Shown: piece after piece, positions 5,918-23,201 of the stretch
How the letters are laid out: the number at the start of each line of letters is the position of its first letter
Position numbering within the stretch: the first letter of the stretch is position 1
NCBI GenBank assembly: GCA_964534375.1
Contig: CAZHPN010000085.1
Location: 1-23,264 of the forward strand
Source of the DNA: an uncultured bacterium
GTDB taxonomy: Bacteria > Lernaellota > Lernaellaia > Lernaellales > Lernaellaceae
Length of the DNA stretch: 23,264 nucleotides
Reading direction: 5' to 3'
Made by a program: the position numbers and the translations under genes
Notes under the pieces: generated by a model
Told to the model about the DNA's origin: nothing
Databases searched by the model: none
The model's input: the letters and a program-made list of their open reading frames with translations, nothing else

Positions 5918-6619
5918 CTAACTGCAAAAGCCGTTCGGGTCGCACGTCATGCCGTTGCCGCAATCCCAACCGAGGCGGCAATCGGGCAAACAGACCATCA
6001 GCACCGGATTGCACAGGTAGCCGGCGCGGCAACTGGCCGGGCCGTTGCAATCGGGCAGGCAGAGCGAGGTGGCGCCGAGTTGCAGGCAGGTGAAGTCGGC
6101 CGGGCACGCGCCGCAGATCTGCGAGCACATCCCGTTTTCCCAGGCGAGGCCGTTCGCGGTTTGTTGCTGCGGCAAGCAATAATTCGACAGGCAATCGGCG
6201 TTCAGCGTGCACGGGTCGCCCAGGTTTTGCGTCGGCGGCGGCACGCATGCGCCGTCGGCGCCGCACACGAAGCCGCTGCCGCAATTCCAGCCGCGGCGGC
6301 AATCCGGCAGGCACGCTTGCAGCGTCGGATCGCAGATATAGCCCGCGCGGCAGTTGCTGTTCGCGGCGCAGCCGGCGAGGCAAAAGGATTGGCCGCCGAG
6401 CGACGCGCACACCGCGCCGCCGCCGCAGCCGCCGGAGCAGCTTTTCGTGCAGTAGCCGCCCGGCCAGCCGGTCGACTGGCCCCACTGTTCGGCCTGCAGG
6501 CACAGATCCGAGCGGCATTGCTCTTTTTCGGTGCAGGCGGCGCCGAGCGGCCGCGAACCAGGGCCGGAGCACGCCGTCAGCGCCGCAAGCAGGCACGCCA
6601 GCGGGAGCAGCCGTCGCAT
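5918..6619 (-). CDS. Cys-rich lipoprotein with two tandem 16-Cys modules
   Basis: Signal peptide with lipobox LTAC. Two ~105-aa repeats each with 16 Cys (CRAGY.C.P....CLPDCR.GW.CG.G..C...G.C). Last gene of the operon. Confidence 0.85.
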   Translation of the reverse strand: MRRLLPLACLLAALTACSGPGSRPLGAACTEKEQCRSDLCLQAEQWGQSTGWPGGYCTKSCSGGCGGGAVCASLGGQSFCLAGCAANSNCRAGYICDPTLQACLPDCRRGWNCGSGFVCGADGACVPPPTQNLGDPCTLNADCLSNYCLPQQQTANGLAWENGMCSQICGACPADFTCLQLGATSLCLPDCNGPASCRAGYLCNPVLMVCLPDCRLGWDCGNGMTCDPNGFCS

Positions 6620-6623
6620 CGCG

Positions 6624-7262
6624 TTACAGCCCTTTCAAGCCGGCGAGCGCATTGGCGTTCTTGCGGTGCACCGCCAAGACTTTCTTGAACATGTCGCGCG
6701 CCTCCGCCGACCGGCCTTGTTTGAGATATGTCCACCCGAGGCCGAGCATCATTTCGAGCTCACTGGGGTAATTTTTCAGCGTCGCCTGATATTGCTGTTC
6801 GGCGAGCTTGTATTTGCCTTCCATGTAATAAACATAGGCGAGGCGGCTGCCGGCGAGGTAGTTGTCCGGCGCGCGGGCTGCGAGCTTGCGCCCCAGCGTT
6901 TCGGCGTCGTCCCACTTTTGCGCGGCCATCAGCGGCAGCAGCAACCCCAATTGGGCCTCGATCGCGCCGGGCGCCAGCGTCATCGCCCGCGTGTAATACA
7001 CGATCGAATCGGCGAAAGTGCCCTTGCAATAGCACAGCCAGCCGAGGCGGTAATTCGCCACGTAGTTCGCCGGATCGAGGCGCAGGATCGCCGTCACGTC
7101 GGCGATCGCCTGCTCGATCGTGCCCGCTTGCTCCTGCAGGTACGAAGACTCGAACAGGGCCGCGATTTCCTCGGCGTGACTCTGCGCGCGGGCGGTTCCG
7201 GTCGTCGCCAGCGCGACGGCGGCGCACAAAAACAAGGTCGCAAATCCGTGGTGTCGCCTCAT
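6624..7262 (-). CDS. Secreted TPR protein
   Basis: Signal peptide ending ARA; TPR-like helices (YRLGWL.Y.KG, YLAGSRLAYVYYMEGKY, LGLGWTYLKQG); GGAGG SD. Confidence 0.88.
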   Translation of the reverse strand: MRRHHGFATLFLCAAVALATTGTARAQSHAEEIAALFESSYLQEQAGTIEQAIADVTAILRLDPANYVANYRLGWLCYCKGTFADSIVYYTRAMTLAPGAIEAQLGLLLPLMAAQKWDDAETLGRKLAARAPDNYLAGSRLAYVYYMEGKYKLAEQQYQATLKNYPSELEMMLGLGWTYLKQGRSAEARDMFKKVLAVHRKNANALAGLKGL

Positions 7263-7272
7263 GAACGCCTCC

Positions 7273-8706
7273 TCAAAAGTTCGCCTGCAAACCGAGCGTG
7301 CCGCCCAGCAGCGAGAAATTGTGTTGCAGGTATTCCTGCTGGATGCCGAACGATTGTTGAAAATCGAGCGTGATTTGCAAATATCGGCCCGCGCTGACGG
7401 CCAGGCCCGCGTCGTATCCGCCCGCGAACAGGTCGTCGCTGCTCCAGATCGACACGCCGCTGTCGTCCACCGCGTGCCGCCGCCGGCCGTAAAAACCGGA
7501 GGCGGACAACGTCAACGGGCCGACGACCTGCCAGCGCACGTAAACATGCCCGGACGCCAGCGTCTCCTCGCGGACCGGTCCCGGGACGGGGCCGTCCTGT
7601 TGGTGGGCGCCGACGGCGATGATTTCCGGCCCGACGCCGATGACCGCGCGGCGCGCGATGCGAAAAACGGCCTCCGCATCGGCCTGAAAAACCGCGAACG
7701 ACGGATAAAAGCTGGCCGCGACGGCGCCCGCGGCGCCGGCGGGCGCGCCGTCATAGCCCGCGCGCAACGCCACGGTTTTGGTCGTGTTGACGTCGGCTTC
7801 ATTGCTGATCAGCCACGCGCCGCTGCCGCCGAGCCACCACCGGCCCGGGTGATATTCGACGCCGACGACCGGCTCCCATTGCCAGAAATTATCGACAGTG
7901 TAGTTCAGCACCGAGCGGGAGTACGACACGCCCGCCCACGGGCTCACGCCGACCGGAAAGGTTACGGCGCCGGTCGCGGTGATGTTTTCGACGTCGCGCA
8001 AATCCCACGGATGGGTGTACTGGAGATACGTCGCCGACGCGGTCACGGCGCCGGTCGTTTTCGGCGCCGGCGCCATCGCCAGGCATTCGTCGACGCGAGG
8101 GTCGGCGCCCAGTTTCGCGCGCGCCTGCTCGCAAAGCCCGCGCCCTTCCGCAACCGCGCCTCGCCGAATGCGCGTGAAGCCCAGGCCCAGCAGCATTTCC
8201 GGTTCGTCCGGCCGAAGCTGCAGCGCGCGGCGATAGAGCGTCTCGGCCGCGGCGTACGAGCCTTGCATGTAAACGGCGAACGCGTCGCGCGCCGTCGCCC
8301 AGTAGTTGTCCGGATCGGCCGCCAGCGCCTTTTCGCCCGCGGCTTGCGCGGCGCGCCAATCCTGCCGCTGCAACGCGACGAGTTGCAGGCCGAGCCACGG
8401 GTCCGCCGAGCCGTCGATCATCTGCGCGGCCCGCCGATAATTCGCCTCGGCGGCGGCGAGATCGCCGCACTTGAAATTGAGCCAGCCGAGCCGCAGCCGG
8501 ACCGCATAAACGTCCGCGCGCGCCAGAATTTGCTCGGCCACGGCGCGGGCCTCGGCGAACTGCCCGGCCTGCGCCAGCGCGTCGCACTTCGTGTACAGCG
8601 CGTCGAGCGTTGCGGACGGCGCCGCGGGCTCGGCGGCCGCGGCGGTTCCCCACGCCAGAAAAACGGCGGCCAGTTGCGCCAACGTTATCCATCGCCGTCG
8701 CGTCAT
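7273..8706 (-). CDS. TPR protein with a C-terminal predicted outer-membrane beta-barrel
   Basis: Start at 8706 gives an ATGA overlap with the upstream gene. Signal peptide, ~6 TPRs similar to those of the downstream protein, then alternating beta-strand pattern ending GGTLGLQANF (C-terminal Phe). Confidence 0.78.
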   Translation of the reverse strand: MTRRRWITLAQLAAVFLAWGTAAAAEPAAPSATLDALYTKCDALAQAGQFAEARAVAEQILARADVYAVRLRLGWLNFKCGDLAAAEANYRRAAQMIDGSADPWLGLQLVALQRQDWRAAQAAGEKALAADPDNYWATARDAFAVYMQGSYAAAETLYRRALQLRPDEPEMLLGLGFTRIRRGAVAEGRGLCEQARAKLGADPRVDECLAMAPAPKTTGAVTASATYLQYTHPWDLRDVENITATGAVTFPVGVSPWAGVSYSRSVLNYTVDNFWQWEPVVGVEYHPGRWWLGGSGAWLISNEADVNTTKTVALRAGYDGAPAGAAGAVAASFYPSFAVFQADAEAVFRIARRAVIGVGPEIIAVGAHQQDGPVPGPVREETLASGHVYVRWQVVGPLTLSASGFYGRRRHAVDDSGVSIWSSDDLFAGGYDAGLAVSAGRYLQITLDFQQSFGIQQEYLQHNFSLLGGTLGLQANF

Positions 8707-10865
8707 GACGCCGCCTCCGCCGTCAATATTTCCCGTTCGCCGCGCCACGCGCGCATCGCGGTCGGCCCGCGCCCGGGCGCCAGGTCGATTTCGATGCGAT
8801 CCGGCAGATCGATGCGCAAGGCCGCGCGCGAACGGCTGCGCACCTGCGTCGCGACGCGGATGCCGCCGGACCAGGGGACGATGGCGCTGGCAGTTTCGAT
8901 TTTGACGATCTCACCGAAGGGCAAGCATAGCTCATGAACGAAACGCGTGACCAGCGGCAAAAACGCATTCGCCGCCGGGCCGTCGTTCCAGCGGATTTGC
9001 GGTTCGGCGACGAACGGCGCGCGCGGCAGGCCGAGATAGAACAGCCCCAGCAGGCGCTTCGCCGGGCCCTGATAATCGAGCAGCGTCACGTAGCTGCCGT
9101 CGGCGAAAAACGGCACGGCCGCGCCGCCGTCGTCCGCGACCAAACGGCGGCCGCCCAGCGGGTCGATTTCGCTCGTCCAAGCCTCTTGCAGGCGTTGGCC
9201 GTCGCGCGTTCCCGACCAGCGCCACTCGCGGCCCGGGGCGAGCGTCAGCGCGCGCCGCACTTCCTCGTCCACCTCGAGCCGGGCGACGATCGCGCCCTGC
9301 GCCGGCGCACCGTGCGTGACGTAACGGCGGCCGGCCGCTTCGCCGGCCACGTAATGCAGAAACTCGCCGTAGATCGTCGGCGCGCCGATCTCGGGCGACG
9401 CCTGCAATTGAAAATGCAGGTGCGGCGTCGGCGAGCGGCCCGAATTGCCAACCCGGCCCAGCAACTGCCCCGCCACGACCGCGTCGCCCTCCTTGACGAC
9501 GATCGAGCCTTTCTGCAGATGGCAAAGCGCGGAGTAGATCGCGCCCGCGTGCCACAGCACGACAAGGTTGCCCCAGTTGTTGGCGATGTTCACCTCGCCG
9601 AGCGGGTTGTCCTCGAAGTGATTGACGACGCGTACGACCTTGGCGTCGCCCGGCGCGAATACCGGCGCCTGAAACGCGTAATAGTCGGTGAGCGCCGCGC
9701 CGTCGCCGCGATGCGCGCGCCCCTCGTCGTCGCCGATGTCGAAATCCCACGCCTGCGCCCATGGGCCGCGGTGCGTCTGGTCGCCGCCAGGCCCCTGCGC
9801 GATGCGCCAGCGGCCGGACACCGGCAGGTAGACCACCGGGACCGCCGGATCGGGATAGCGCCGTTCGCGGTGCAGCAGCCGGCTCAAGTTCTTCTCGGGC
9901 GAATCGATTTCGCCATAGATCAATTGCAAACGACCGCGCCCGGCGCGGATCATCACCGCGAATAACATTAAATATGTCGCGACGATGAACGGCGCCGCCA
10001 GCACGGGCAGTTCATAGGGCCGCAGCAAGCCGGAAAACGCGGCGGACAGCACCGCGGCCAGCGCGCCGCCGCACAGGGCGAAGAGCAGCGACGCCGGGCG
10101 CAAGGCGATCCACACGCCGCCGACGGCGATCGCGGTGAGGATGAAGTTGAGGCCGACGAATTGCGCCCGCAGATCCAGCGCGTTGCCGCCGAGCGCCGCG
10201 TACATGCCGTAGCCGCCGGCGAACCCGATGATGGAAAGCAGCGTCGCCCAGCGCGAAAACCAGAGCAGCCCGAGGAAAACGAGAATGCCGGACGCCACGC
10301 TCAACTGGTAAAACGCCGCGCCGAGCGAACGCAGATACAACTCGACGAGGCCCGGCAGCGCGCCGCCGCCGAGGTCGGCTTGCAGCACGGGCTCGAGCGT
10401 TTTTTCGACGCCGGCAAAACCGGGCGCCGCCAGCCACGCGGCCCAGGCGGCGAGCAGGAAGGGCAGGCTGAGCACCGGCAGGCCGAGATAACGCTGGAAC
10501 AAATGGCGCAGCAGCGCCGCCGCCAGCACGCCGAAAAAGACGATCGCCGCGAGAAAGAGCGCCGCTTGCCACGTCAACGACAAGCGCCAGCCGAGCGCCA
10601 GGCCGATCAACAGGCCGTTGAAGCCGTAGTAGCCGTCGGCGATGTGCTCTTTCGGCCGGCCGAGCAGCCGCGCGAAGAGGTCGGCGAAGGCGAGACCGAG
10701 CAGACCCAGCAGGCCGTGCCGCGGCACGACGAACGTCGCCGCGGCGAAGAGCAGCCCGGCGACGAGGCTCTGCGAAAAGTAGATTTGCGCATACGTGCGC
10801 AGCCACGCGGCCAGCGCCGCCTTGGACGAGCCGATAAAGCGGAGTGTGGCGGGCTCAGACGCCAT
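8703..10865 (-). CDS. Urea-transporter-family membrane domain fused to an M23-family peptidase domain and an unknown C-terminal domain
   Basis: Two UT-like repeats (AQIYFSQS..GYYGFNG..LSLPF; GAAFYQ..GLNF..LAAPF) with ~10 hydrophobic segments, then M23 motifs THRG....WDF, PVFAPGDAKV, WGNLVVL.H, LCHL, G.VGNSGRS..PHLHFQ. Confidence 0.85.
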   Translation of the reverse strand: MASEPATLRFIGSSKAALAAWLRTYAQIYFSQSLVAGLLFAAATFVVPRHGLLGLLGLAFADLFARLLGRPKEHIADGYYGFNGLLIGLALGWRLSLTWQAALFLAAIVFFGVLAAALLRHLFQRYLGLPVLSLPFLLAAWAAWLAAPGFAGVEKTLEPVLQADLGGGALPGLVELYLRSLGAAFYQLSVASGILVFLGLLWFSRWATLLSIIGFAGGYGMYAALGGNALDLRAQFVGLNFILTAIAVGGVWIALRPASLLFALCGGALAAVLSAAFSGLLRPYELPVLAAPFIVATYLMLFAVMIRAGRGRLQLIYGEIDSPEKNLSRLLHRERRYPDPAVPVVYLPVSGRWRIAQGPGGDQTHRGPWAQAWDFDIGDDEGRAHRGDGAALTDYYAFQAPVFAPGDAKVVRVVNHFEDNPLGEVNIANNWGNLVVLWHAGAIYSALCHLQKGSIVVKEGDAVVAGQLLGRVGNSGRSPTPHLHFQLQASPEIGAPTIYGEFLHYVAGEAAGRRYVTHGAPAQGAIVARLEVDEEVRRALTLAPGREWRWSGTRDGQRLQEAWTSEIDPLGGRRLVADDGGAAVPFFADGSYVTLLDYQGPAKRLLGLFYLGLPRAPFVAEPQIRWNDGPAANAFLPLVTRFVHELCLPFGEIVKIETASAIVPWSGGIRVATQVRSRSRAALRIDLPDRIEIDLAPGRGPTAMRAWRGEREILTAEAAS

Positions 10866-12219
10866 CGCCGTCTGCCGCCAGGCGCGCGGGCAGCCGCTCC
10901 AGGCTCTTGATGGCGTCGATGGATTCCGCCTCGCGAATGACGTCGACCTTGCCGGCTTCGCCGATCAGCACGACCGGCGGGCGCAGGCGGATGAACTGCA
11001 TCCACTGCGTCACGTTGTAGGCGCCGACCGGCCGGATGACCAGCGCATTGCCCGGCTCCATCGGCGGCAGCAGCGCCGACGGCCGCACGACGTCGATGTT
11101 CATGCACAGCGGCCCGTAGACGACGGTCTCCTCCAGCATGCCGCCGCGATCCACCGCCGGCAACACCTCGTGCCGATACCAGAACGAGGTCAGCAGCGAG
11201 TTGACGCCGCAGTCGATCACCATCGCTCGCGACCCGTCGGCCAGCCGCTTGTTGCCGATGACCCGCGCCAGCATGAAGCCGGCCTCGTCGACCAGCGCGC
11301 GGCCGGTCTCCAGAAACAGCGTCGGCCATTCGGCGCCGGCGAAGCCGGCCTTGAGCAGCACGCCCGTGATCGCCTCGGCGTAGTCCTCCAGCGAAGGCGA
11401 GCTGTCGACGCCCGGCGCGTACTGCTCGTGCAGCGTGCTGCGCGAGGCGAAACCGCCGCCGAAATCGAGGTAGCCGAGCGCCGTCCCGAATTCGCTCTTG
11501 AGCTGCTTCGCCATCGCCACCAGCTTCGTCGCCGCCTGCGCGTACGCGTTCGGCTCGAGCACGAATGTGCCAATGTGGCAGTGCAGTCCGTCGAGCTGCA
11601 AATGCCCCCCGGCGTGAATCCGCCGCGCCGCGTCCAGCGCCTCGCCGTTGTCGTAGTTGAAGCCGAAGCGGTCCCACCGCGGGTAAATGCCCGTGTCCAT
11701 GTTCACGCGAATCGCGACCTTCGCCGGCCGGCCCATTTCCTTGGCGATGCGCTCGGCCAGGTACAGCTCGTCGTAGTGGTCGAGGTGCACCTTGGCGCCT
11801 TCGGCGAACGCGCGCCGCAATGCCGCCTCCGGTTTGTACGGGCCGTTGAACAGGATCATCCGGCCCGGAATGCCGAGCCGGCGCGCCATCTCATATTCCA
11901 TTTCGGAAACGACCTCGGCCCACGCGCCTTCCTGGTGGAAAATGCGGCACACGGCGTCGAGGTAGTTCGTCTTGTACGACCAAGCGAACTGCACCTTCGG
12001 ATAGCGCGTCGAGAAGGCGCGGCGCGCCTCGCGGATCTTCTGCCGCAGCGTGTGCTCGGAAAAGACGAACAGCGGCGTGCCGAACCGTTCGATCAGGCTC
12101 GCGACTTCCACTTCGTCGATGCGCGGCAGCGCCCGCCGCGCCGGGCCGCGGCCGAACTTGTTCGCCAGGCCGAAGGCGTGGCGGATGATGCTGGGTTTTT
12201 CGTAGGGGAGCCGGCTCAT
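10855..12219 (-). CDS. Group IV (fold-type III) PLP-dependent decarboxylase, LysA-like but with an atypical specificity loop
   Basis: FGTPLFV, WSYKTN (PLP Lys), HCHIGT, DFGGGF, ETGRALV, GPLCMNID, GAY. The true start is ATG 12219 (ATGA overlap with the ATP-grasp stop); the ORF-track extension to 12720 overlaps that gene. Confidence 0.88.
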   Translation of the reverse strand: MSRLPYEKPSIIRHAFGLANKFGRGPARRALPRIDEVEVASLIERFGTPLFVFSEHTLRQKIREARRAFSTRYPKVQFAWSYKTNYLDAVCRIFHQEGAWAEVVSEMEYEMARRLGIPGRMILFNGPYKPEAALRRAFAEGAKVHLDHYDELYLAERIAKEMGRPAKVAIRVNMDTGIYPRWDRFGFNYDNGEALDAARRIHAGGHLQLDGLHCHIGTFVLEPNAYAQAATKLVAMAKQLKSEFGTALGYLDFGGGFASRSTLHEQYAPGVDSSPSLEDYAEAITGVLLKAGFAGAEWPTLFLETGRALVDEAGFMLARVIGNKRLADGSRAMVIDCGVNSLLTSFWYRHEVLPAVDRGGMLEETVVYGPLCMNIDVVRPSALLPPMEPGNALVIRPVGAYNVTQWMQFIRLRPPVVLIGEAGKVDVIREAESIDAIKSLERLPARLAADGDGV

Positions 12220-13289
12220 GATTTCTCCTCGGCGGGCGGCGTCCGATGGACTTCGCCCAGCGTGGTCAACGCTTCGTAGTCTGCCAGGCGGCAGATTTGA
12301 TCGAACGAGTGGCGCAGGAACATCACGCCCGGCTCGGCCGGCGGCATCGGCGGCACGGGCTGGCCGAGCGCGAGCATCACCGTCGCCCACGCGAGGTTGC
12401 GGCCGGCGCCGACCGCCAGGTACACCCAGGCGGGAAAGCGCGGGTTGATTTCGAGCAGGAACAGCTCGTCGTTGCGGCTCGCCCGCATCACTTCCAGTTC
12501 GCACGGCCCGCGCCACCGCAGCTTGCGCACGGCCTCGGCGACAAACTGGTTCAGCCGCTCGTCGCGGATGGTGATCCCGCCCCAGGCCTTGCCCTTGTCG
12601 GTGAGCTGCATCTTGCGCATCGCCGCGGCGCCGACAAGGCCGCCGTCGCCGTCGCCGACGGCGACGATGTCGTATTCCTCGCCGGCGATGTATTCCTGAA
12701 TGATCACCGGCGCGCCCCATTTGTTGCGCAGCCGCACGAAATGGCCCTCCGCCTCCATCGGCGAGTAGGCGATGCTGGCGTCGTAGAACTGGCCCTTGAC
12801 CATCACCGGAAACGCGAACTCCTCGTCGAGGCGGCGAATCGCCGTGGCGTCGTTGATCGCGACGCTCTTGGGCACGTTGATGCCCAGGCCGGACTTCAGT
12901 TCGTAGAATTTCGCCTTCGAGCGCAGCTTCAACTGCTCCTCGGTCGGCAAGAACGTCTTGATGCCGAGCCGCAACAACTCGTCGAGCAGCTTCAGGTAAG
13001 CCGGCAACTCGGCGTCGAGCGTCGGGATCAGCACGTCGATCGGGTGCTCTTTGTGGATGTGACAGAGCCGGTCGAACACCGCCTGCGCGCCTTGCGACGG
13101 ATACGGCATCAGGTACACGTGGTCCGCGATGTCGGTCATGTAGTTGCCCGGGTCGAGCGGATCGTACGACAGCCCGACGATGCGCACCGTCTCGCCCGCC
13201 TGGTGGCGAATCGCGCGGATCAGCGGCACGCCGGGCGCCGGGTTGTCCGTGGCGTTCAGCCCGGTCACCGCGATCGTCAGCGGCCTCAT
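12216..13289 (-). CDS. ATP-grasp enzyme (PylC / carbamoyl-phosphate-synthase-like ligase)
   Basis: DVLIPTLDAEL, FPVMVKG, IIQEYIAGEEY, WRGPCELE, LLEINPRFPAW. Confidence 0.9.
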   Translation of the reverse strand: MRPLTIAVTGLNATDNPAPGVPLIRAIRHQAGETVRIVGLSYDPLDPGNYMTDIADHVYLMPYPSQGAQAVFDRLCHIHKEHPIDVLIPTLDAELPAYLKLLDELLRLGIKTFLPTEEQLKLRSKAKFYELKSGLGINVPKSVAINDATAIRRLDEEFAFPVMVKGQFYDASIAYSPMEAEGHFVRLRNKWGAPVIIQEYIAGEEYDIVAVGDGDGGLVGAAAMRKMQLTDKGKAWGGITIRDERLNQFVAEAVRKLRWRGPCELEVMRASRNDELFLLEINPRFPAWVYLAVGAGRNLAWATVMLALGQPVPPMPPAEPGVMFLRHSFDQICRLADYEALTTLGEVHRTPPAEEKS

Positions 13290-13543
13290 AGCTCTTGCTC
13301 CTCGGCGTCGATGACCTTCAGGTCGCGCAGCCGAAAGAGGAATTGCTCCACATCGCGCCGCCCGTTTTCGGCGTCGGTTTCGAACGCCGCCGCCAGCAGC
13401 GCCGGCAGGTCGTCGGCCGCGGCGCCGTCCATCAGCTTGCGCAGCAGAAAGGCGCCCGTGCGGTTCAGGCTGAAGGTGTTGCCGGTGCGGGAATCGAACA
13501 GGAACCCATTTTCGCTCAGCGCCAGGTATTCGAAGGCGGCCAT
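13286..13543 (-). CDS. Stand-alone PqqD-family protein (RiPP recognition element, RRE)
   Basis: 85 aa. GFLFDSRTGNTFSLNRTGAFLL..L.DG ... DVEQFL..L....VI matches the 3-strand/3-helix PqqD pattern; ATGA overlap with the ATP-grasp gene. Confidence 0.88.
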   Translation of the reverse strand: MAAFEYLALSENGFLFDSRTGNTFSLNRTGAFLLRKLMDGAAADDLPALLAAAFETDAENGRRDVEQFLFRLRDLKVIDAEEQEL

Positions 13544-13667: not shown

Positions 13668-14822
13668 CTATTCCATCAGGTCATGCCAATCCGGGTCGTC
13701 GTTGACGAGCTGCCCGAGCCATTGATAGTACGTTGTCCCGTCGATGGCGTGCTCGCCCAAATCGGTCATCGCGAGCATCGTGTGGCCGTAGCCGTTCGTG
13801 AAAAACCGATGAAAGCGGTCCGGGTGCGCGGTTTCGATGTTGCCCGTGATCTGCAGCAGCGTCTGCTTGAATTCGGCGGGCGGCATTTGCAGAAAGACCA
13901 GCGTGATCACGCGGTCGTAATACGACGAATCCATCGCAATGCGCACCTGCGGGTCGAGGTCCATGAACGTCTCGAACATATACGTCATGATGGGCCCGTC
14001 GCACTTGGTGCACTGGGGCGGCATCTGCACGTCCCACGCGCCCGAAATGGACGCCCATTTCGCCGGGTCGTCCGGATTCCAGAACCCGACGCCCGAATCG
14101 CTGACGAGGTAGGTGTCCGTGTCCATGTACTGCGACTTCATGATCGCCCAGCCGAAGAGCGTGCCGAAACCGCCCGCGCTGGAGCCGACGATCAACGCCT
14201 TTTTCGGCGACGGGAAGATTCGCTTCATCAACGCCACGGCCGCCGCGGTGTGCCGCACCCCCCACTGCGCCGCCGGGCCGCTGGGATAATCGACGATCGC
14301 GTTGCCGAGATGCAGGCTGGCGTCGCAATAGGGGACGTACACGAAATTCCAATCGCTCAACGGATTGCCCGGGAACGGCAGTTTGAAGAGGTTGAGCACC
14401 GGCGTGTCGACGTTGACCACCAGGCCGCCGCCGGGCCACCGTGCCCCGCCGCCTTCGAGAAACAACATCACATTGTCGGACGTGCCGCGCTGCACGGCCA
14501 CGCGCGCTTGCGAGCCGTCGAAACACCGCACGTCGTTCTCGTTGAAATAGTAGAAGGTGAAGCCGTCCGGGCCGGCTGCGACGCTCTCCGGCTCGATGTC
14601 GAGATATTGTTGGAAGCCCATGCTCGTGAACATGGCGCTGAGGGTCGGCTGCGGGTTGGCCGGCGAACTGTCGTCGTCGCCGCTTGCCGAATCGTCGTCG
14701 CCGCCGGCCGCGTCGTCGTCGTCATCGCCCGCCGCCGGCGCGCTCGCCGGCGCATGGCCCGCGCACGCCGCCAGCAAAAGAAGCAGCGCGCAAACCCATG
14801 CCGCGCGTTGTTTTAGGTGCAT
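13668..14822 (-). CDS. Pectinacetylesterase-family (alpha/beta hydrolase) lipoprotein
   Basis: Lipobox LAAC, Asp-rich linker GDDDDD..GDDD..GDDD, FLEGGGA, YVPYCD...H.G, nucleophile GSSAGG, late His (GYGHT). Confidence 0.85.
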   Translation of the reverse strand: MHLKQRAAWVCALLLLLAACAGHAPASAPAAGDDDDDAAGGDDDSASGDDDSSPANPQPTLSAMFTSMGFQQYLDIEPESVAAGPDGFTFYYFNENDVRCFDGSQARVAVQRGTSDNVMLFLEGGGARWPGGGLVVNVDTPVLNLFKLPFPGNPLSDWNFVYVPYCDASLHLGNAIVDYPSGPAAQWGVRHTAAAVALMKRIFPSPKKALIVGSSAGGFGTLFGWAIMKSQYMDTDTYLVSDSGVGFWNPDDPAKWASISGAWDVQMPPQCTKCDGPIMTYMFETFMDLDPQVRIAMDSSYYDRVITLVFLQMPPAEFKQTLLQITGNIETAHPDRFHRFFTNGYGHTMLAMTDLGEHAIDGTTYYQWLGQLVNDDPDWHDLME

Positions 14823-15169: not shown

Positions 15170-16330
15170 ATGAGCAAGGTCCGTTTGCCGAAGAAATTTG
15201 TCAGCCAGTACCCGCACAAATTTTCGCAGGGCAAAGAGCGGTTTCTCTGCGGCAAACGCATCTCGCCCAAGCCGATCACGGGCAAGGAGCCGCTCGACGA
15301 GCTGATCGACGGCACGTTCCTCGCCTACAACGCGGGGCGGCTCGGCGAGGCCTGCCGGTTGTTTTCGGAAAAGATGCTCGACTCCGACGTGACGATCGGG
15401 ATGAGCCTGGCGGGCGCGCTGACGCCGGCGGGGCTCGGCGCAAGCGTGGTCGTGCCGCTGATCCGGGCGGGGTTCATCGACTGGATCGTCTCGACCGGCG
15501 CGAACCTCTACCACGACCTGCACCACGCGCTGAACTTTCCGCTGCACCGCGGCTCGCCGTACGCTAACGACCGCGACTTGCGCAAGGTCGGCGTGGTGCG
15601 CATTTATGATATTCTGTTCGACTACAACTCGGTCCTGATGGCGACCGACAGCGTCCTGCGGCAGGTTCTCCGGCAGCCCGAATTTCAAAAGGAAATGGGC
15701 ACGGCCGAACTGCACCACCTGCTCGGCAAGTACTGCGCCGAATTCGAGAAGGAACTCAAGCTGCACGACGTCTCGATGCTCGCCGCGGCCTACCGCGCCG
15801 GCGTGCCCGTTTTCTGCCCCTCGCCGGGCGACTCGACGATCGGCATGAACATCGCCGGCCTCGAACTCGAAGGCAGCCAATTGCGGATCAACCCGTCGAT
15901 CGACGTCAACGACACCAGCGCCATCGTACTCGGCGCCAAGCAGGACCGGCGCAAGACCGGCGTCGTGCTGGTCGGCGGCGGCTCGCCGAAGAACTTCACC
16001 TTGCAGACCGAGCCGCAGATTCAGGAAGTCCTGCGCGTCAAGGAAATGGGCCACGATTACTTCCTGCAATGCACCGACGCCCGGCCGGACACCGGCGGCC
16101 TTTCCGGCGCGACCCCGCAAGAGCCCGTGAGCTGGGGCAAGGTCGATCCGGGCCAATTGCCCGACGCGATCGTCTGTTACCTCGACGTCACCGTCGCCGC
16201 GCCGCTGCTCACCCATTACGCGTTGGCGCGCCGCGCGCCGCGGCCGCTCAAGCGGCTCTACGACCGCCGGGGCGAACTGACGGCGAACGTCAAGCGCGAA
16301 TACCTCGCCCGCCACCGGAGCGCCGACTGA
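15170..16330 (+). CDS. Deoxyhypusine-synthase-like protein (probable homospermidine biosynthesis)
   Basis: [59 protein letters not shown] (active-site Lys retained). AGGA SD before ATG 15170. Confidence 0.92.
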
Positions 16331-16361
16331 CGACTCCGCACGCCAGACAAAGGCTGAAAGC

Positions 16362-17501
16362 ATGATCTCCCTGAAACAATTGAAGACGCTCGCCGCCGAG
16401 CACGGCACCCCGCTGTTCGTGGTCGATCACGACGAGGTGCGCCGCAACTACGCCGCGTTCAAACGCAGCCTGCCGCGGGTGCAGGCCTACTACGCGATCA
16501 AGGCCAATCCCGACCCGGCGATCGTCAAGACGCTGTACGACGCCGGCGCGAGCTTCGACGTCGCCTCGTTCCCGGAATTCCGGATCGTCTACGAGAATAT
16601 CAAGAAACTCCCGGCCGCGGCGCGGCAGGCGTTCATTTGGGATAAACTGATCTACGCCAACCCGATCAAGGACGACGAGACGCTCGCGAAACTGGATCCC
16701 TACAAGCCGCTAGTGACCTACGACAACCTCGAAGAGATCAAAAAAATGCGCCGCTGCTCGCCGCACGCCGGGCTCGTGCTGCGCATCCAGGTGCCCAACA
16801 CCGGCTCCGTCGTCGAGCTGTCGTCGAAGTTCGGCGCGGCCCCGGGCGAAGCCGTCGACCTGATCGAGGCCGCGCGCGCCGCCGGCTTCGTCGTCGAAGG
16901 CCTGAGCTTTCACGTCGGCAGCCAGGCCACCAATTTCGACAACTACGTGCAGGCGCTCAACATCGCGGCGGATATTTTCCACGAGGCGCGGCTGCGCGGT
17001 CACGACAAGATGAACGTGCTGGACATCGGCGGCGGCTTCCCGGCGCCCTACGACGATCAGGTCAAACCCTTTCCGGCGCTGGCCAAGGTGTTGACGCAGG
17101 AAATCGACCGGCTGTTTCCGAAAGACATCGAGATCATCGCCGAGCCGGGCCGGTTCCTGGTCGCCACGGCCGCGACACTGGTCGTCAAGGTCACCGGCAA
17201 GGCCATGCGCGACCGCAAGCCGTGCTATTACGTCGACGACGGCGTCTACGGCACGTTTTCCGGCATTCTCTTCGACCACTGCCAATATCATCTCGAAGCG
17301 TTCAAGAGCGGACCGAAGGAAATCTGCTCGGTGTTCGGCCCGACCTGCGACGCGCTGGACACCATCTCGCGCGCCGAGGAATTGCCGGATCTCGAATTGG
17401 GCGATCTCCTCTATTCGCGGAACATCGGCGCCTACACCAACGCTTCGGCCACCGACTTTAACTGCATTCCGCGGGCGAAAGTATTGCATGTCCATCGTTG
17501 A
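16362..17501 (+). CDS. Ornithine/lysine decarboxylase, fold-type III (eukaryotic-ODC-like)
   Basis: YYAIKAN, FDVAS, SKFGA, SFHVGSQ, LDIGGGF, EPGRF, DGVYG.F, GPTCDALD, GAYT. Confidence 0.92.
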   Translation: MISLKQLKTLAAEHGTPLFVVDHDEVRRNYAAFKRSLPRVQAYYAIKANPDPAIVKTLYDAGASFDVASFPEFRIVYENIKKLPAAARQAFIWDKLIYANPIKDDETLAKLDPYKPLVTYDNLEEIKKMRRCSPHAGLVLRIQVPNTGSVVELSSKFGAAPGEAVDLIEAARAAGFVVEGLSFHVGSQATNFDNYVQALNIAADIFHEARLRGHDKMNVLDIGGGFPAPYDDQVKPFPALAKVLTQEIDRLFPKDIEIIAEPGRFLVATAATLVVKVTGKAMRDRKPCYYVDDGVYGTFSGILFDHCQYHLEAFKSGPKEICSVFGPTCDALDTISRAEELPDLELGDLLYSRNIGAYTNASATDFNCIPRAKVLHVHR

Positions 17502-18292: not shown

Positions 18293-21200
18293 TTATTGCG
18301 GCTGCAGCGCCTCTTCGGCGCGGGCGAGCCGCTGGCCGTCGTTCGGATAGGCCGCCTTGACCTGCTGATAAATCGTCGTCGCCTTGTCGGTTTTGCCGAG
18401 CTGGCGATAGGTCTCGATCAGCAGGATGTCGCCGTCGTAGACCTTGTTCGGGTCGTTGAACGAGCCAATCTCGCGTTCCAACAATGCGACGGCGGCGTCG
18501 CCGCGCTTCGTTTTGCACATCAGCCGCGCCTGGCGAATGATGATATCCGCCCGGTCGCTGCCGGGCCGCGACCAGATCGTCAGCATTTTGGCGTACAGCT
18601 TCTCTTCGTCGGCGAACCGCGACTGCTCGTCGAGCATGTCGCTCCAGAAGACGCCGGCGTTGAACGCCTGCCACGGTCCGCGCGGCTCGTCGAGCAACCC
18701 GCGGTACAACTCCTCGGCCTTCGCTTTCTCTTCCGTGCGGCGATAGGTGTTGGCCAACTCCAGCCGCGCCGACATGCCGACGTCCGTATGGCCGTTCAGC
18801 GACGCCGCGTCCTTGAGCAGCGGCAACGCCTTGTCGGGCAGGCCCTTGGCGACGTAGGCGCGGCCGACGATGAGTTTGAAAGCCGCCGTGCGTTCGGCGT
18901 CCGCGGCGAATTCCTTCACGGCGGTCGCGTAGAGTTCTTCCAGAGCCGGCAGATTGCCCTGCTCGCGATCGAGATCGAGCAGCATGCGATAGCCCTCGAA
19001 ACGCCGGCCGCGGTCGGCGAATTTCGGCAGTTCGCGCGCCAGGAGCGCGGCGGCGAGGTCGGTCTTTTTTTGCCGTTGCAGCAGCGCGATCTGGCGCAGC
19101 ACGATGTCGGCGCGTTCGTCGTCCTTGGCCGCGTGCTCTTTCGCGAGTTCGGCGAGCAACGCTTCGGCTTCGGCGAATTTCTGCTGGTCGCCGAGCAGAT
19201 CGGCAAGGGACAAGCCGGCGGCGAGCGTTTCCCAGGTGTCCTTTTTCGCGGCCATCACCTCGCGAAACATTTTTTCGGCGGCGGCGCGATCGCCTTCGCG
19301 GCGCATTTCGTTGGCCAGGTTCAGCTTGGCCTCCAGGACGACGGGGGCGTTCGGATAATGGGCGATCAGTTCGCGGTAGACGGCGGCGGCGCGGTCGCCC
19401 TGGCCCTGATCGACGTGCATCTGCGCGAGCGACATTTTCGCCGCCACGAGCCGTTCGTCGTCAGCGCCGATCGTCTTGGCCAGTTGGCCGAACGCCTCTT
19501 CCGCCGCCTTCGGTTCGCCCTTGCCGGCGTACAACTCCATGAGCAGGGCGTTGGCGTCGGTCAACCGCTTGGTGTCGAGGAATTTTGGCATCTCGGCGCG
19601 CAGCAGGGCGATGGCGTCGTCGACGCGGTTTTCCTTTTGATACAGGCGCGAGCGTTGGATCACGATGTCGGACCGCTCTTCCCGCCGGTTGCCCCAGCGC
19701 TTGATCATGGCGTCGAGTTGCTTGTCGGCCTCGGCCGTTTTGCCTTCGGTGGCCAGGATATCGGCGACGGTCGCCGCGGCGGCGAACACCTGCCAGGAAT
19801 CCTTGGTGCTCTCGGACAACTCGCGGAAAATTTTCTCGGCCTTCGGCAGATCGCCGGCGCGCCGGAGCATGCCGCCGAGGTCGGCCTTGGCCTGCAGCGC
19901 CGCTTCGGAATCGGGGTACTGGGCGATGACTTCGCGGAAGGTCGCCCCGGCCTTGTCGTTCTGGCCCAGCCGATCGTAGGCCTTGCCGAGGACGACCTTG
20001 GCCTGCGCGAGCCGCGCGGGGGCCGCGCCAGCGGACTTCAATGTCGCCTTGACCGTCTCCTCCGCCGCCTTCATGTCGCCGGCGGCCGCGTAGAGTTCGA
20101 TGAGCAGGAACTGGGCGTCGACGGCCTTGGCGGGGTCGGTCAACGTCGGCAGTTCCTTTTTCATCAGGGCGACGCCCTCGGCCGGTTTGCCGACGCGCTC
20201 CAACAAAGCCGCCTGATGAAAGACGATCTCGGCGCGTTCATCCGGCTTGGATTCCCACTTCTTGCGCATGCCGGCCAGGATCTGCTGCGCTTCGTCATAC
20301 GCCTGCCGGTCGATGAGAATATCGGTCAGCGACATCCCCGCCTGGAACGGCTGCCAACCGTCGATCGAGCCCTCGAGCAGTTCACGATAGAGTTTTTCGG
20401 CTTTGCCCTGATTGCCCGTCTGCCGATATTGGTCGGCCAGGTTCAACTTGGCCTGGCTCTCGGCGTCGGCGTTGTGCGATTGCGCCAGTATCTCGCGGTA
20501 CAACGTTTCCGCTTTGTCGTTCAAACCCTTGGTCGAATAGAACTGCGCCATTTCCACTTTCGTGCGCGACATTTTCTCGGCGTCCTGACCGAAATGTTCC
20601 TGGATGCGGCGGTAGCATTCTTCGGCCGCCGGGAGGTTGTCGGTGATCCGGTAGAGATGCAGGAACTGGAAATCCGCGTCGTATTTCTTGTTCGGATCCT
20701 TCAATTGCGGCGCGAGTTCCTGCAGACGGGCGATCGCCTCCTGGTTTTTCCCTTCTTCCTGCAGCAGGCGGGCCCGGCGCAGCAGCACGTCGGCGCGATC
20801 GACGTCCGGCTCGCGCCAGCGGGCTTCCATGTCGTCGAGCTGCTTTTCGGCGTCGGCGAATTTCTTTTGCTCCGAGTAGGATTCGACGAGCGTCAGACCG
20901 GCGGCCAGCGTCTGCCAACCGGCGCCTTTGCCCTCGTACAACTCGCGGTAGATCTGCTCGGCCTTGTCGCGCGACCCGGCGCGGCGCAACGCCGACGCCA
21001 GATCGAGCTTCGCCGTCGCCACCTGGTCCGGATTCGGCGAGTGCGCGATGACCTCGCGGTACAGCGCTAGCGCCTTGTCGCCGAAGCCTTTGCCCGCGTA
21101 CATCCGCCCCATCGCCGTTTTGGCGCCGGCGACGCGCTCGGGATCGGCGGCGTATTTCTTCAACACGTCGTTGTAAATGGCTTCGGCGGGCGGGAGGTTG

Positions 21201-23104
21201 CCCGCGGCGGCGTAGAGCGACAGCAGCGACATGCTGCCTTCGTAATATTTGTTGCGGTCTTTGAATCCGGGGAGCGCGCCGGCGAGCATGGCCAGGGCCT
21301 TGTCGGGTTTGCCCATGGCTTCGAGCAGGCGGGCCTGCCGCATCACGAGTTCGTCGCGCATTTCCTCGGTGGTCGCGCGCCGGGTCATGTCGGCGATCAG
21401 GTCTTCGGTTTCGCGGAAGCGCCCTTGCCCCTGGTACAGTTCGACAAGCTTGATGCCGGCCGGCCCGGAAATGGTCAGGTCTTTCGTCCCGGTGTAGACC
21501 GACTTGTACCGCTGCTCCGCTTTGTCGAGGTCGCCGCGTTTGCGCAACGCGTTGGCGATGGCCATTTCGGCGTCGACGCGCATCCAGAGGCTGGTGGCGC
21601 CGGCGTCGTAGTCCTTGAGCCGCGCCAGCGTCTTTTCGGCGTCGTCGATGCGTTCCAGGGCGCACTGCACGGCGATCGCCTCGGCGAGCGCGCGATTGCC
21701 GATGCTCAATTCCGACTGGAATTTGTCGAAGACGGCCAGGTACTTGGCGAGCGCCTCTTCGTTGCGGCCTTCTTTTTTCAGCAGTTCCGCGAGGCCAAAA
21801 TCGGCGCTGGCCTCGGCATCCGGATTGTCGACCTCCGTTTTGCGGATCTTTTCGTAGAGCGCGCGGGCTTTGTCGGGTTCCCCCATTTCGGCGTAGAGCT
21901 TGGCCATGGCTTCGATGGCGAACACGGCCTCAGGGTTGCCCTCGTAGGTCGTGGCGATCGCCTCAAACTGCGCGAGCGCCTTTTCGTATTGCCGGCGCTG
22001 GGCGTACACGCCGGCGATGGCCAGCTTGGCGGCGGCGACGCGGTTGGGGTCCGCGGCGTACTTTTGCACGATCACCTGATAGAGCTTGATGCCGGCGTCG
22101 TATTCGCCGAGTTTGACCGTTTTTTCCGCCTGCTTCTGCAGCACGTCGTACGACCAGTGTTGCGGACCGGCGAAAAAACGGTATGTGAAAAAAGAGATCG
22201 CGGCGATGGCGACCAGCACGACGGCCTGCGCGACATGGCTGCTGCGCAAGAGCCGCAGGAACCGGCGGATCAGGAACATGTCGACGAGCGCGCCCTGGCT
22301 CTTGTAGCCCCGCAGCAGTTCCTCCGACACGCCGGAGATGGACTTGAGCGAGGCTTTTTTCAGAACGGCGTCCTGAAAATTGATGTTCTCCTGGTCCGAG
22401 CCGTTGAAGACCGCGCCCGAGAGGTCAGCCCCGGTGAAATTGACGTTTTCGAGCACGCCGCTGAAAAATTGCGCGTTGACGAGGCCCGCGCGGGAGAAAT
22501 CGACGTCTTTGAGTTCGGCCAGCGAGAAATCCACGCCTTGCGCATTCAACCCCGCCGCTTGCACGCGCGCCAAACGGCATTCCTGGAAGACGCCGCCCCG
22601 CAGATCGGCGCCGGTCAGGTCGATGTCCAGCAAATCGGCGTCGGCGGCTTTGGTTCCGACGCACTTCGCCCGAATCAGTTTGGCCCCGGAAAGCCGCGCC
22701 CGATGAAATAGGGCTTTGGACACATCGGCGTCGGTCAAATCGGCGTCCTGAAACACCGCCTTCCCGAAGTCGGCCTGCAACGCCTTGACGCCGGCGAGCT
22801 TGGCGCCAGTGAAGTTGGCCTCTTTGGCCTTCGCCTGGTCGAGTTTCGCCCCGGTGAGATCGGCCCCGGTGAAGTTGGCTTCGCGCAAGTCGGCGTCGGA
22901 CAGATCGGCGCCCGAGAGGTCGGCGCCGGACAAATCGGCCTTGCGCAAATTGGCGCCGCCGGCCGCGATGTTGCGGAGTTTGGCGCCGCGCAGATCCGCC
23001 TTGGGCAGCTTGATGTTCGCGAGGTTGGCGCCGACGAGTCCGCCCGTCTTGGCCTTGGCGAACACCTCTTCCGGCGTTAACGAAATGCCCGATTTTTCGG
23101 CCAT
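18293..23104 (-). CDS. Large membrane-anchored protein: pentapeptide repeats, single TM helix, long TPR-like solenoid (1603 aa)
   Basis: A(D/N)LxG pentapeptide repeats in the first ~260 aa, hydrophobic VAQAVVLVAIAAISFFTYRFF, then TPR-like helices. GGAGG SD before ATG 23104; ATG 23173 lies inside the putative -10 box. Confidence 0.9.
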   Translation of the reverse strand: MAEKSGISLTPEEVFAKAKTGGLVGANLANIKLPKADLRGAKLRNIAAGGANLRKADLSGADLSGADLSDADLREANFTGADLTGAKLDQAKAKEANFTGAKLAGVKALQADFGKAVFQDADLTDADVSKALFHRARLSGAKLIRAKCVGTKAADADLLDIDLTGADLRGGVFQECRLARVQAAGLNAQGVDFSLAELKDVDFSRAGLVNAQFFSGVLENVNFTGADLSGAVFNGSDQENINFQDAVLKKASLKSISGVSEELLRGYKSQGALVDMFLIRRFLRLLRSSHVAQAVVLVAIAAISFFTYRFFAGPQHWSYDVLQKQAEKTVKLGEYDAGIKLYQVIVQKYAADPNRVAAAKLAIAGVYAQRRQYEKALAQFEAIATTYEGNPEAVFAIEAMAKLYAEMGEPDKARALYEKIRKTEVDNPDAEASADFGLAELLKKEGRNEEALAKYLAVFDKFQSELSIGNRALAEAIAVQCALERIDDAEKTLARLKDYDAGATSLWMRVDAEMAIANALRKRGDLDKAEQRYKSVYTGTKDLTISGPAGIKLVELYQGQGRFRETEDLIADMTRRATTEEMRDELVMRQARLLEAMGKPDKALAMLAGALPGFKDRNKYYEGSMSLLSLYAAAGNLPPAEAIYNDVLKKYAADPERVAGAKTAMGRMYAGKGFGDKALALYREVIAHSPNPDQVATAKLDLASALRRAGSRDKAEQIYRELYEGKGAGWQTLAAGLTLVESYSEQKKFADAEKQLDDMEARWREPDVDRADVLLRRARLLQEEGKNQEAIARLQELAPQLKDPNKKYDADFQFLHLYRITDNLPAAEECYRRIQEHFGQDAEKMSRTKVEMAQFYSTKGLNDKAETLYREILAQSHNADAESQAKLNLADQYRQTGNQGKAEKLYRELLEGSIDGWQPFQAGMSLTDILIDRQAYDEAQQILAGMRKKWESKPDERAEIVFHQAALLERVGKPAEGVALMKKELPTLTDPAKAVDAQFLLIELYAAAGDMKAAEETVKATLKSAGAAPARLAQAKVVLGKAYDRLGQNDKAGATFREVIAQYPDSEAALQAKADLGGMLRRAGDLPKAEKIFRELSESTKDSWQVFAAAATVADILATEGKTAEADKQLDAMIKRWGNRREERSDIVIQRSRLYQKENRVDDAIALLRAEMPKFLDTKRLTDANALLMELYAGKGEPKAAEEAFGQLAKTIGADDERLVAAKMSLAQMHVDQGQGDRAAAVYRELIAHYPNAPVVLEAKLNLANEMRREGDRAAAEKMFREVMAAKKDTWETLAAGLSLADLLGDQQKFAEAEALLAELAKEHAAKDDERADIVLRQIALLQRQKKTDLAAALLARELPKFADRGRRFEGYRMLLDLDREQGNLPALEELYATAVKEFAADAERTAAFKLIVGRAYVAKGLPDKALPLLKDAASLNGHTDVGMSARLELANTYRRTEEKAKAEELYRGLLDEPRGPWQAFNAGVFWSDMLDEQSRFADEEKLYAKMLTIWSRPGSDRADIIIRQARLMCKTKRGDAAVALLEREIGSFNDPNKVYDGDILLIETYRQLGKTDKATTIYQQVKAAYPNDGQRLARAEEALQPQ

Positions 23105-23171
23105 GTTGCCTCCGCTTCCCAGTTGCGCCTCTCGTCGAAAAAGAAGGCGGGAATCTAGTGCACCGCTGGTC

Positions 23172-23201
23172 ATTATTATGCGGCCCGTTTCCCGCCGTCA
23201 A
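23172..23201 (-). promoter_or_regulatory. Putative sigma70 promoter of the pentapeptide/TPR gene
   Basis: Minus strand TTGACG (23201-23196) followed by CATAATAAT, giving AATAAT at 18-nt spacing. Confidence 0.5.

Follow-up and report, generated by a model that had tools for sequence, protein, structure and literature searches.

Lasso-type RiPP recognition elements (RREs; RiPP, a peptide made by the ribosome and modified after translation) read a ligand motif of the form [Y/W]xxPx[L/V/I/F/A], according to the available portions of two reports (PMC13381572, PMC10368454). In the structure of LppB with its leader, as presented in that portion of PMC13381572, Asp70 bonds the hydroxyl of Tyr(-16) and Asn33 holds the kink at Pro(-13). 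The Trp-reading PbaB1 has Gly42 and Gln79 at the positions of Asn33 and Asp70 (PMC13381572, same portion). RREs are used as a class-independent flag for RiPP clusters, and their ligand is assumed to be a short precursor. Here, we describe a stretch of 23,264 nt from an uncultured bacterium of the Lernaellaceae (contig CAZHPN010000085.1), which was analysed as a whole and is called the window. In the window, a lasso-type RRE appears to read a leader motif that heads a full-size metabolic enzyme, a decarboxylase dependent on pyridoxal 5'-phosphate (PLP). An earlier sequence-only reading of this DNA had proposed that the RRE docks on a YxxP motif of the decarboxylase. The proposal is supported by computation, namely by the conservation and predicted disorder of the tail, the lasso-B1 type of the RRE, its contact residues, the covariation of Tyr and Asp, and a weak co-fold. 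The open reading frame (ORF) map shows that five minus-strand genes, overlapping or abutting, form a cassette. Its three upstream genes and the parts of the tail are as follows.

13286..13543, minus strand: stand-alone RRE of the PqqD family, 85 aa (Pfam PF05402)
12216..13289, minus strand: ATP-grasp ligase, 357 aa (Pfam ATPgrasp_Ter and ATP-grasp_3)
10855..12219, minus strand: PLP-dependent decarboxylase of the LysA/FslC fold, 454 aa (Pfam PF02784 and PF00278)
12151..12219, minus strand: N-terminal tail of the decarboxylase, residues 1-23, with Y6-x-x-P9-x-I11 (12204-12187), G17 and N20-K21-F22-G23 (K21 at 12159-12157)
12121..12150, minus strand: variable linker between the tail motif and the fold, residues 24-33 (column entropy over orthologues)

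The decarboxylase begins with MSRLPYEKPSIIRHAFGLANKFG. About 23-30 residues precede the LysA/FslC fold, because residue 34 is the first to match the lysA profile (at profile position 11) and residue 30 the first to align with the solved FslC. The tail itself does not align to FslC. The sequence-only reading had described an extension of about 30 residues with YEKPSI (residues 6-11) at 12204-12187; these coordinates are exact, and both alignments place the fold after the extension. In a single sequence, such a motif is not beyond chance, since [YW]xxPx[LVIFAM] occurs within the first 30 residues of 77 out of 5809 long ORFs of the same genome (1.3%). Its conservation, however, goes far beyond chance: the motif occupies one and the same alignment column in all of the 70 complete orthologues, from four or more phyla, that were used for column counts. 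Y6 is present in 69 of them (one has Trp), P9 in 70, and I11 in 64 with Met, Val or Leu in the remainder. Further along, G17 is found in 65, K21 in 70 and G23 in 68, and position 22 is Phe in 54 and Tyr in 10. The motif was also present in 78 of 78 readable decarboxylase N-termini from 80 genome loci, which were collected by a scan with the ATP-grasp and have a common gene order. The six-frame translation of the window's own 6.3-Mb genome contains the extended motif once. Spacing in the tail is nearly fixed, with one extra residue in L008 and L013, and K21 usually follows Tyr6 by 15 residues. The mean column entropy is 1.40 bits for residues 4-23, 2.37 bits for the linker 24-33 and 1.15 bits for the fold. 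The AlphaFold2 (AF2) model of the decarboxylase has a predicted local distance difference test (pLDDT) value of 85.6; residues 1-3 and 7-25 are below 50 and have no secondary structure. Three tails gave no match against Pfam and NCBIfam at E values up to 10. By alignment and model, therefore, the tail has the anatomy of a tethered short linear motif.

More distant relatives retain less of the tail. When 1.84 billion representatives were searched, the alignment of relatives with about 49% identity or more began at residue 1-5, and those at 30-45% identity keep only Y-x-x-P-x-(I/L/V/M/F). Among ten decarboxylases with 29-42% mutual identity, Tyr and Pro are the only invariant residues before the fold besides the start Met; these ten come from the second, likewise RRE-bearing type of cassette described below. 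A lasso-like macrolactam in the tail was considered and rejected, as neither the window nor the Bacteroidota tails have an Asp or Glu 7-9 residues beyond G23.

The RRE matches PF05402 over residues 15-78 with 46.7 bits against a cut-off of 23.4. With a profile of 36 orthologues, its best solved relatives were TbiB1 (5v1u/5v1v) and TfuB1 (6jx3), at an E value of 1.7e-10. The NCBIfam model lasso_PqqD (NF033530) gave 51.1 bits, which is below its cut-off of 70. In pairwise alignments, Asn27 and Asp64 of the RRE fall on N33 and D70 of LppB, equivalent to G42 and Q79 of PbaB1, and the two residues are 37 positions apart in both the RRE and LppB. Asp64 is present in 69 of 69 readable orthologue rows; Asn27 is present in 61 of 70, with Ser in the rest. 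Because Asn27 and Asp64 fall on the Tyr and Pro contact positions, the RRE seems equipped to read a YxxP ligand.

The two partners also vary together. Phe replaces Tyr6 (FERPxI) in twelve metagenome loci and three Bacteroidota genomes. In all 15 of these Phe-tail pairs, RRE position 64 is a residue other than Asp (Tyr in 10, Ser in 2, and His, Glu and Ala in 1 each). Asp64 is kept in 109 of 111 pairs with a Tyr or Trp tail, the exceptions being L116 (Asn) and L016 (truncated). It was found again in 43 of 43 and 17 of 17 further Tyr/Trp pairs, where some genomes repeat earlier loci. A contact between the Tyr hydroxyl and Asp predicts exactly such a pattern. Position 64 of the RRE is free to vary only where the hydroxyl of the tail is gone. 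A covariation of Tyr with Trp was also looked for and gave no signal; the Trp-tail loci with a readable RRE (L002, L162, L263) keep both Asn27 and Asp64.

The linkage between tail and RRE was followed through genomes and metagenomes. The 80 genome loci carry labels of Myxococcota, Bacteroidota (Prolixibacteraceae), Cloacimonadota and Spirochaetota and come from both isolates and metagenome-assembled genomes (MAGs), with single MAGs labelled Rickettsiales (L064) and Victivallis (L007). Cultured carriers are Mariniphaga anaerophila DSM 26910, Mariniphaga sediminis and Maribellus mangrovi. Beyond the five cassette genes, these loci have no genes in common. A complete or partial RRE occurs in 79 of them, and the last one is cut by the contig end. 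A metagenome scan with proteins of 30-45% identity gave another 80 loci, mostly with the same cassette, of which 66 were scorable and 50 had enough upstream DNA; the RRE is present in 49 of these 50. Among sampled species genomes, the cassette decarboxylase was found in 46 of 401 Myxococcota, 31 of 401 Bacteroidota and 7 of 301 from another phylum. Every decarboxylase with a readable N-terminus in this sample carries the tail. The RRE is present wherever about 1400 nt or more of upstream DNA is available, except in four Bacteroidota loci (L220, L229, L234, L239). When longer DNA was taken for these four, two have the RRE, one runs off the contig and one (G810) has the RRE on another contig. 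Five of five LysA-type paralogues lack the tail, and neither an RRE nor an ATP-grasp accompanies them. The sequence-only reading had suggested setting YxxP conservation against RRE presence, and the tail proved to be conserved wherever the cassette of RRE, ATP-grasp and decarboxylase was found. Within the window's own phylum, the cassette occurs in 4 of 17 species genomes and in two of its four families. Horizontal transfer is suggested, because this spread is patchy and the cassette is present in several other phyla.

A competing ligand for the RRE was also sought. In most loci, the genes of the cassette overlap or almost touch, leaving no room between them, and no small ORF within 900 nt of either cassette end is conserved across phyla in the 80 genome loci. 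This agrees with the earlier statement that no separate precursor ORF lies near the RRE gene. A single PqqD gene is present in the window's own genome (6.3 Mb, 94% complete), and a second copy of the tail was not found in it. A search for short proteins sharing words with tail residues 1-40 gave no candidate under a strict test (three exact 5-mers), which cannot demonstrate absence. Elsewhere in the cassette, [YW]xxPx[LVIFAM] is fully conserved at one site only, W191-GAPVI of the ATP-grasp (76 of 76 sequences). It was rejected as a ligand by its position inside the confidently folded core of the AF2 model. Pfam scans of the window's main ORFs found neither a lasso cyclase (Asn-synthetase-like) nor a B2 transglutaminase-like protease.

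Co-folding of the RRE with decarboxylase residues 1-32, the other computational check that the sequence-only reading had proposed, passed its controls at the level of 'weak support', so that each computational check of that reading favoured docking. The score was 0.53 (runs of 0.55, 0.52 and 0.53), compared with 0.02 for the best of three controls. The input alignments had 36 rows for the RRE and 35 for the tail. Between runs, at least 95% of contacts agree, and the partner has a pLDDT of at least 57. Of 157 solved complexes, 116 reach the mark applied, as do 2 of 215 mismatched pairs; passes with a score of 0.60 or under comprise only 18 of the 157 solved complexes plus both passing mismatches.

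From the alignments and models, we infer that the RRE binds the decarboxylase tail, and we consider this likely. If it does so through the YxxP motif, the tail would be a built-in leader. The 85-aa RRE would grip the disordered tail via Y6-x-x-P9-x-I11, as lasso B1 proteins grip YxxPxL leaders. The expected mode is strand addition, in which Asp64 would reach the Tyr hydroxyl and Asn27 would sit at the Pro kink.

What such binding could be for depends on the other proteins of the cassette. The remaining two genes are the following.

8703..10865, minus strand: membrane protein UT-M23, 720 aa (Pfam UT 1.2e-55, M23 6.6e-15)
7273..8748, minus strand: fifth cassette gene, with signal peptide, TPR repeats and a probable YaiO-like outer-membrane beta-barrel (Pfam TPR)

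The RRE stop overlaps the ATP-grasp start in an ATGA, and so does the ATP-grasp stop with the decarboxylase start (ATG 12219). The PLP lysine of the decarboxylase is K83, within an invariant S-Y-K83-T motif. Its closest solved relative is FslC (7kh2; 208.7 bits over residues 30-430), followed by LysA (137) and BtrK (104). It lies below the LysA equivalog cut-off (TIGR01048, 213.7 bits against 297.9) and below that of the FslC model (NF041039, 213.5 bits against 500). FslC is the N-citrylornithine decarboxylase of rhizoferrin synthesis and acts on ornithine acylated at its side-chain amine, and BtrK acts on carrier-bound glutamate. FslC as the closest solved relative suggests that the substrate here is an amino acid amide-linked at its far end. 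The AF2 model of the ATP-grasp has a pLDDT of 90.6. Among the Foldseek matches listed to rank 50, its neighbours are 2pn1, biotin carboxylases, carbamoyl phosphate synthetase (CPS), L-amino-acid ligases, PurD and PurK; these listed matches, which rank likeness and do not test membership, include no graspetide synthetase. An assignment of function from structure was abandoned, as the Foldseek neighbours are only generic ATP-grasps and the sequence matches in the PDB are weak. Pfam gives a weak match to a PylC-like N domain. UT-M23 consists of a urea-transporter-like domain (20-303), an M23 metallopeptidase domain (399-488) and a beta-rich C-terminal domain, for which the Atlas structure search returned no named family. 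The metal ligands H365, D374 and H482-x-H484 are conserved in 56 sequences. The fifth gene, whose likely start is the ATG at 8706, lies 3' of UT-M23 in 60 loci, the window included, in the search for small ORFs and flanks of the 80 loci. The Atlas structure search of this gene led to YaiO-type barrels and gives a lead only.

A second type of cassette, with decarboxylases about 40% identical, keeps the YxxPx(I/L/V) tail and the RRE. Its order is TPR protein, RRE, two ATP-grasps, tail-bearing decarboxylase, and a UT domain fused to SIR2, which replaces M23. Such loci are L094, L095-L097, L099, L100, L102 and L166, and their TPR protein is large. In L094 (184-9546), GNAT is added to the UT-SIR2 fusion. 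The type-2 RREs pass PF05402 (51.4 bits in L094, 36.5 bits in L100). By domain matches, two unrelated amide-handling domains, M23 and SIR2, thus occupy the same place on the UT channel. Cys and His are abundant in the open frame upstream of the RRE domain in L094, L095 and L102. Two predicted fusions were found, namely P0125 (871 aa; ATP-grasp-linker-YVRPSI-decarboxylase), taken as a lead only, and P0141 (781 aa; decarboxylase-UT). They may hint at physical association, but could also be gene-calling artefacts or read-through of overlapping genes. The cassette of G810 is split, with ATP-grasp, decarboxylase and UT-M23 on G810:C21 (L240) and the RRE on G810:C10 (L244). A reverse-strand ORF of 146 aa is inserted between its ATP-grasp and decarboxylase genes.

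We propose, with less assurance than for the binding itself but with the balance in its favour, a fuller account in which the tail serves as a built-in leader, and the RRE acts as the adaptor by which the decarboxylase is brought to the ATP-grasp. Assembly would be the likeliest purpose; the genes of the RRE and the ATP-grasp are translationally coupled. An amide is the probable product of the ligase, and its free amino-acid end would be decarboxylated, because the catalytic body of the decarboxylase is closest to FslC and related to BtrK. This amide would be handed straight to the FslC-like decarboxylase. A second tail patch, (N/S)-K-(F/Y)-G, about 15 residues after the Tyr, would be placed beside the ligase. 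The product or carrier may then be handled at the membrane by the UT-like channel, the fused amide-cleaving domain and the TPR/beta-barrel protein. The bridge to the ATP-grasp, all of the chemistry and the export are the parts of this account that we infer.

Several points weigh against this account and have to be set beside the evidence above. The co-fold lies in a weak band, in which a pass is wrong more often than right if the guess had not been likely from the start. The pass may also reflect likeness or memory and not binding, because lasso RRE-leader complexes have already been solved. The covariation may go back to one evolutionary event. In the tree, the Phe rows, L116 and a Tyr/Asp clade of Prolixibacteraceae form one supported clade whose interior is unresolved. 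Parsimony counts 3 changes of the aromatic residue and 2 between Asp and non-Asp; well-supported branches give one independent pair, with which a sign test cannot reach significance. The approximately unbiased (AU) test does not reject a single Phe clade (p = 0.154). L061 has the RRE and the ATP-grasp with no adjoining decarboxylase, and none was found with this query in its MAG, the completeness of which is not known. L092 has no RRE within its fragment. The statement that there is no RRE where there is no tail rests on distant LysA-type paralogues only, and the tail-less relatives, P0142, P0143 and P0147 among them, are unplaced. A profile of these relatives over 301, 401 and 401 genomes of three phyla returned, above 1e-100, only tail-bearing cassette decarboxylases. 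A precursor may be encoded elsewhere than in the cassette. The ATP-grasp bridge would follow only from the gene overlap and from the behaviour of RREs in RiPP systems.

One challenge to the binding is that the RRE serves a separately encoded peptide or only stabilises the ATP-grasp, and that the tail works independently of it as an active-site lid across the dimer, as an autoinhibitory product mimic through Lys21, or as a signal for docking to the membrane or UT. RiPP precursors can be encoded away from their enzymes. The locus with RRE and ATP-grasp but without decarboxylase (L061), the weakness of the co-fold support and the commonness of the motif alone among long ORFs are all compatible with it, and an AF2 monomer cannot display contacts across an obligate dimer. 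However, no conserved small ORF accompanies the 80 loci, and the window's genome has the extended motif and the PqqD gene once each. The RRE keeps its Tyr- and Pro-reading residues and loses Asp exactly at the Phe tails, which independence would not predict. Besides, the tail is predicted to be disordered and not packed. For these reasons, we regard independence of tail and RRE as unlikely. Leader-guided processing, in comparison with lasso B1/B2, would have the RRE hand the tail to M23 for a cut near F22/G23, so that the decarboxylase would become active or be released at the membrane. Bonds with a Gly are favoured by enzymes of the M23 family. In the cassette, the metal ligands of M23 are conserved, and the distance from Y6 to G23, the latter kept in 68 of 70 orthologues, is 17 residues, as from Tyr(-17) to Gly(+1) in lasso precursors. 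In the available portion of PMC10368454, YxxPxL spans positions -17 to -12 of lasso leaders. The type-2 cassettes, however, keep the RRE and YxxP and carry SIR2 where M23 would stand, which rules out M23 as the general partner. Furthermore, G17 is off the lasso -8 position, residue -2 is Lys and not Thr, and the M23 domain may not face the cytoplasm. Processing of this kind is thus very unlikely.

A further possibility leaves the docking in place and changes its purpose. The tail would be a built-in carrier or primer: the RRE docks on YxxP and presents Lys21, the ligase acylates its epsilon-amine with an amino acid, the decarboxylase works on the tethered group in the manner of BtrI/BtrJ/BtrK or LysW, and the domain fused to UT splits the acyl-lysine bond and so frees the product for export. 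The sequence-only reading had offered a carrier role for this Lys beside a scaffold role, and either may apply. K21 is kept in all of the 70 genome-derived orthologues, but at least four representatives have another residue there, namely P0104 (Thr; 62% identical), P0127 (Pro), P0152 (His) and P0177 (Ser), and so does the type-2 locus L099 (NTFAG). The tail of L092 has no Lys after the motif. Because Lys21 is not universal, the carrier role is weakened, and an enzyme doubling as a stoichiometric carrier would be unusual. PylC acylates the epsilon-amine of Lys, and SIR2 enzymes are acyl-lysine deacylases; accordingly, the weak PylC-like match of the ATP-grasp and the fusion of the UT channel to M23 in type 1 and to SIR2 (with GNAT in L094) in type 2 count in favour of a carrier. 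So does the action of the solved relatives FslC and BtrK on amino acids that are amide- or thioester-linked at the far end. On balance, we think that a carrier role is improbable. In its boldest form, which is quite unlikely, RiPP recognition machinery would have been co-opted to build a non-ribosomal product on the decarboxylase's own tail, with the RRE gripping the YxxP motif. The ATP-grasp would load an amino acid on Lys21, and the decarboxylase would trim it in cis or across the dimer. The cycle could repeat, each decarboxylation regenerating a primary amine, and would lead to a side-chain-free polyamide. The M23 or SIR2 domain would free this product, which would exit via the slot-like channel and the TPR/beta-barrel protein. 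A channel with a TPR/beta-barrel protein is an architecture otherwise typical of exopolymer export.

The surroundings of the cassette are specific to this genome in part. The 124-nt gap upstream of the RRE gene contains two copies of a 13-nt direct repeat, TTACAATTCGCCG, at 13644-13632 and 13611-13599 on the minus strand and 33 nt apart, which may serve as an operator or promoter. The next gene upstream, on the same strand as the RRE (13668-14822), encodes a secreted pectinacetylesterase-like protein with an Asp-rich N-terminal region and is not conserved in the 80 related loci. Beyond it on the plus strand (15170-17501) are a homospermidine-synthase-like gene (NF001980, 520 bits) and an ornithine/lysine-type decarboxylase gene. 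These polyamine genes stand beside the cassette only in this genome, because they are not conserved with it in any of the 80 loci. After the TPR/barrel gene come two more minus-strand ORFs with high GC content at third codon positions. One of them (6624-7262) encodes a TPR protein of 212 aa and the other (5918-6619) a protein of 233 aa without family assignment. The minus-strand ORF at 18293-23173 encodes a protein of 1626 aa with N-terminal pentapeptide repeats and many TPR repeats.

If the binding is true, the recognition of leaders by RREs would be a general device for protein recruitment outside RiPPs. Some 'orphan' RREs would then have no precursor for genome miners to find, and a widespread pathway would become testable in cultured strains. 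The natural pairs of Tyr with Asp and of Phe with non-Asp are suited to a specificity swap.

The nearest described enzymes resemble parts of the cassette. The decarboxylase falls short of the FslC model by its score, its tail is unaligned, and its cassette has an ATP-grasp, while the partner of FslC is a synthetase of NRPS-independent siderophores (NIS). The BtrI-BtrJ-BtrK system of butirosin and the LysW/LysX system likewise have an ATP-grasp ligase beside a LysA-fold decarboxylase acting on a tethered amino acid. Their carriers are separate small proteins (the thiol of an acyl carrier protein, and the C-terminal Glu of LysW), and they have no RRE; the only candidate attachment site here is a non-universal Lys on the enzyme's own tail. 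Borosin precursors have a core peptide fused at the C-terminus of its own methyltransferase and modified by this enzyme, with no RRE. They share with the decarboxylase that a recognition or substrate peptide and an enzyme are in one polypeptide, but the tail here is N-terminal and an RRE is present. A published description of the cassette was not found in literature searches, which did not cover the supplements of RRE surveys, where such RREs may be listed. The available portions of PMC12710340, PMC13097080, PMC13622209 and PMC7470986 do not describe it.

The recognition mode, by comparison, is known. In LppB-LppA, the RRE also reads an N-terminal YxxP, and Asp70 and Asn33 of LppB match Asp64 and Asn27 here. 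LppA-type precursors of linear polyphosphorylated peptides have up to 200 residues, as far as the available portion of PMC13381572 describes them. LppA is there a dedicated precursor that is phosphorylated and cut; here, unlike LppA, the motif heads a catalytic enzyme, with no kinase or signal-peptidase-like protease. Relative to the literature searched, it is the enzyme as ligand, the partnership with an ATP-grasp and a PLP decarboxylase, and the cassette itself that are without description. The closest likeness is to the lasso B1 RREs, TbiB1 and TfuB1/FusB1, which share with the RRE of the window the PqqD fold, the best solved sequence match, the ligand motif, the Asn and Asp contact positions and a small stand-alone gene. 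Unlike the lasso B1 systems, the window has no lasso cyclase, B2 protease or separate precursor, and the lasso_PqqD score stays below its cut-off. In their place, the RRE has an ATP-grasp and a PLP decarboxylase as partner enzymes, with the N-terminus of the 454-aa decarboxylase as presumed ligand.

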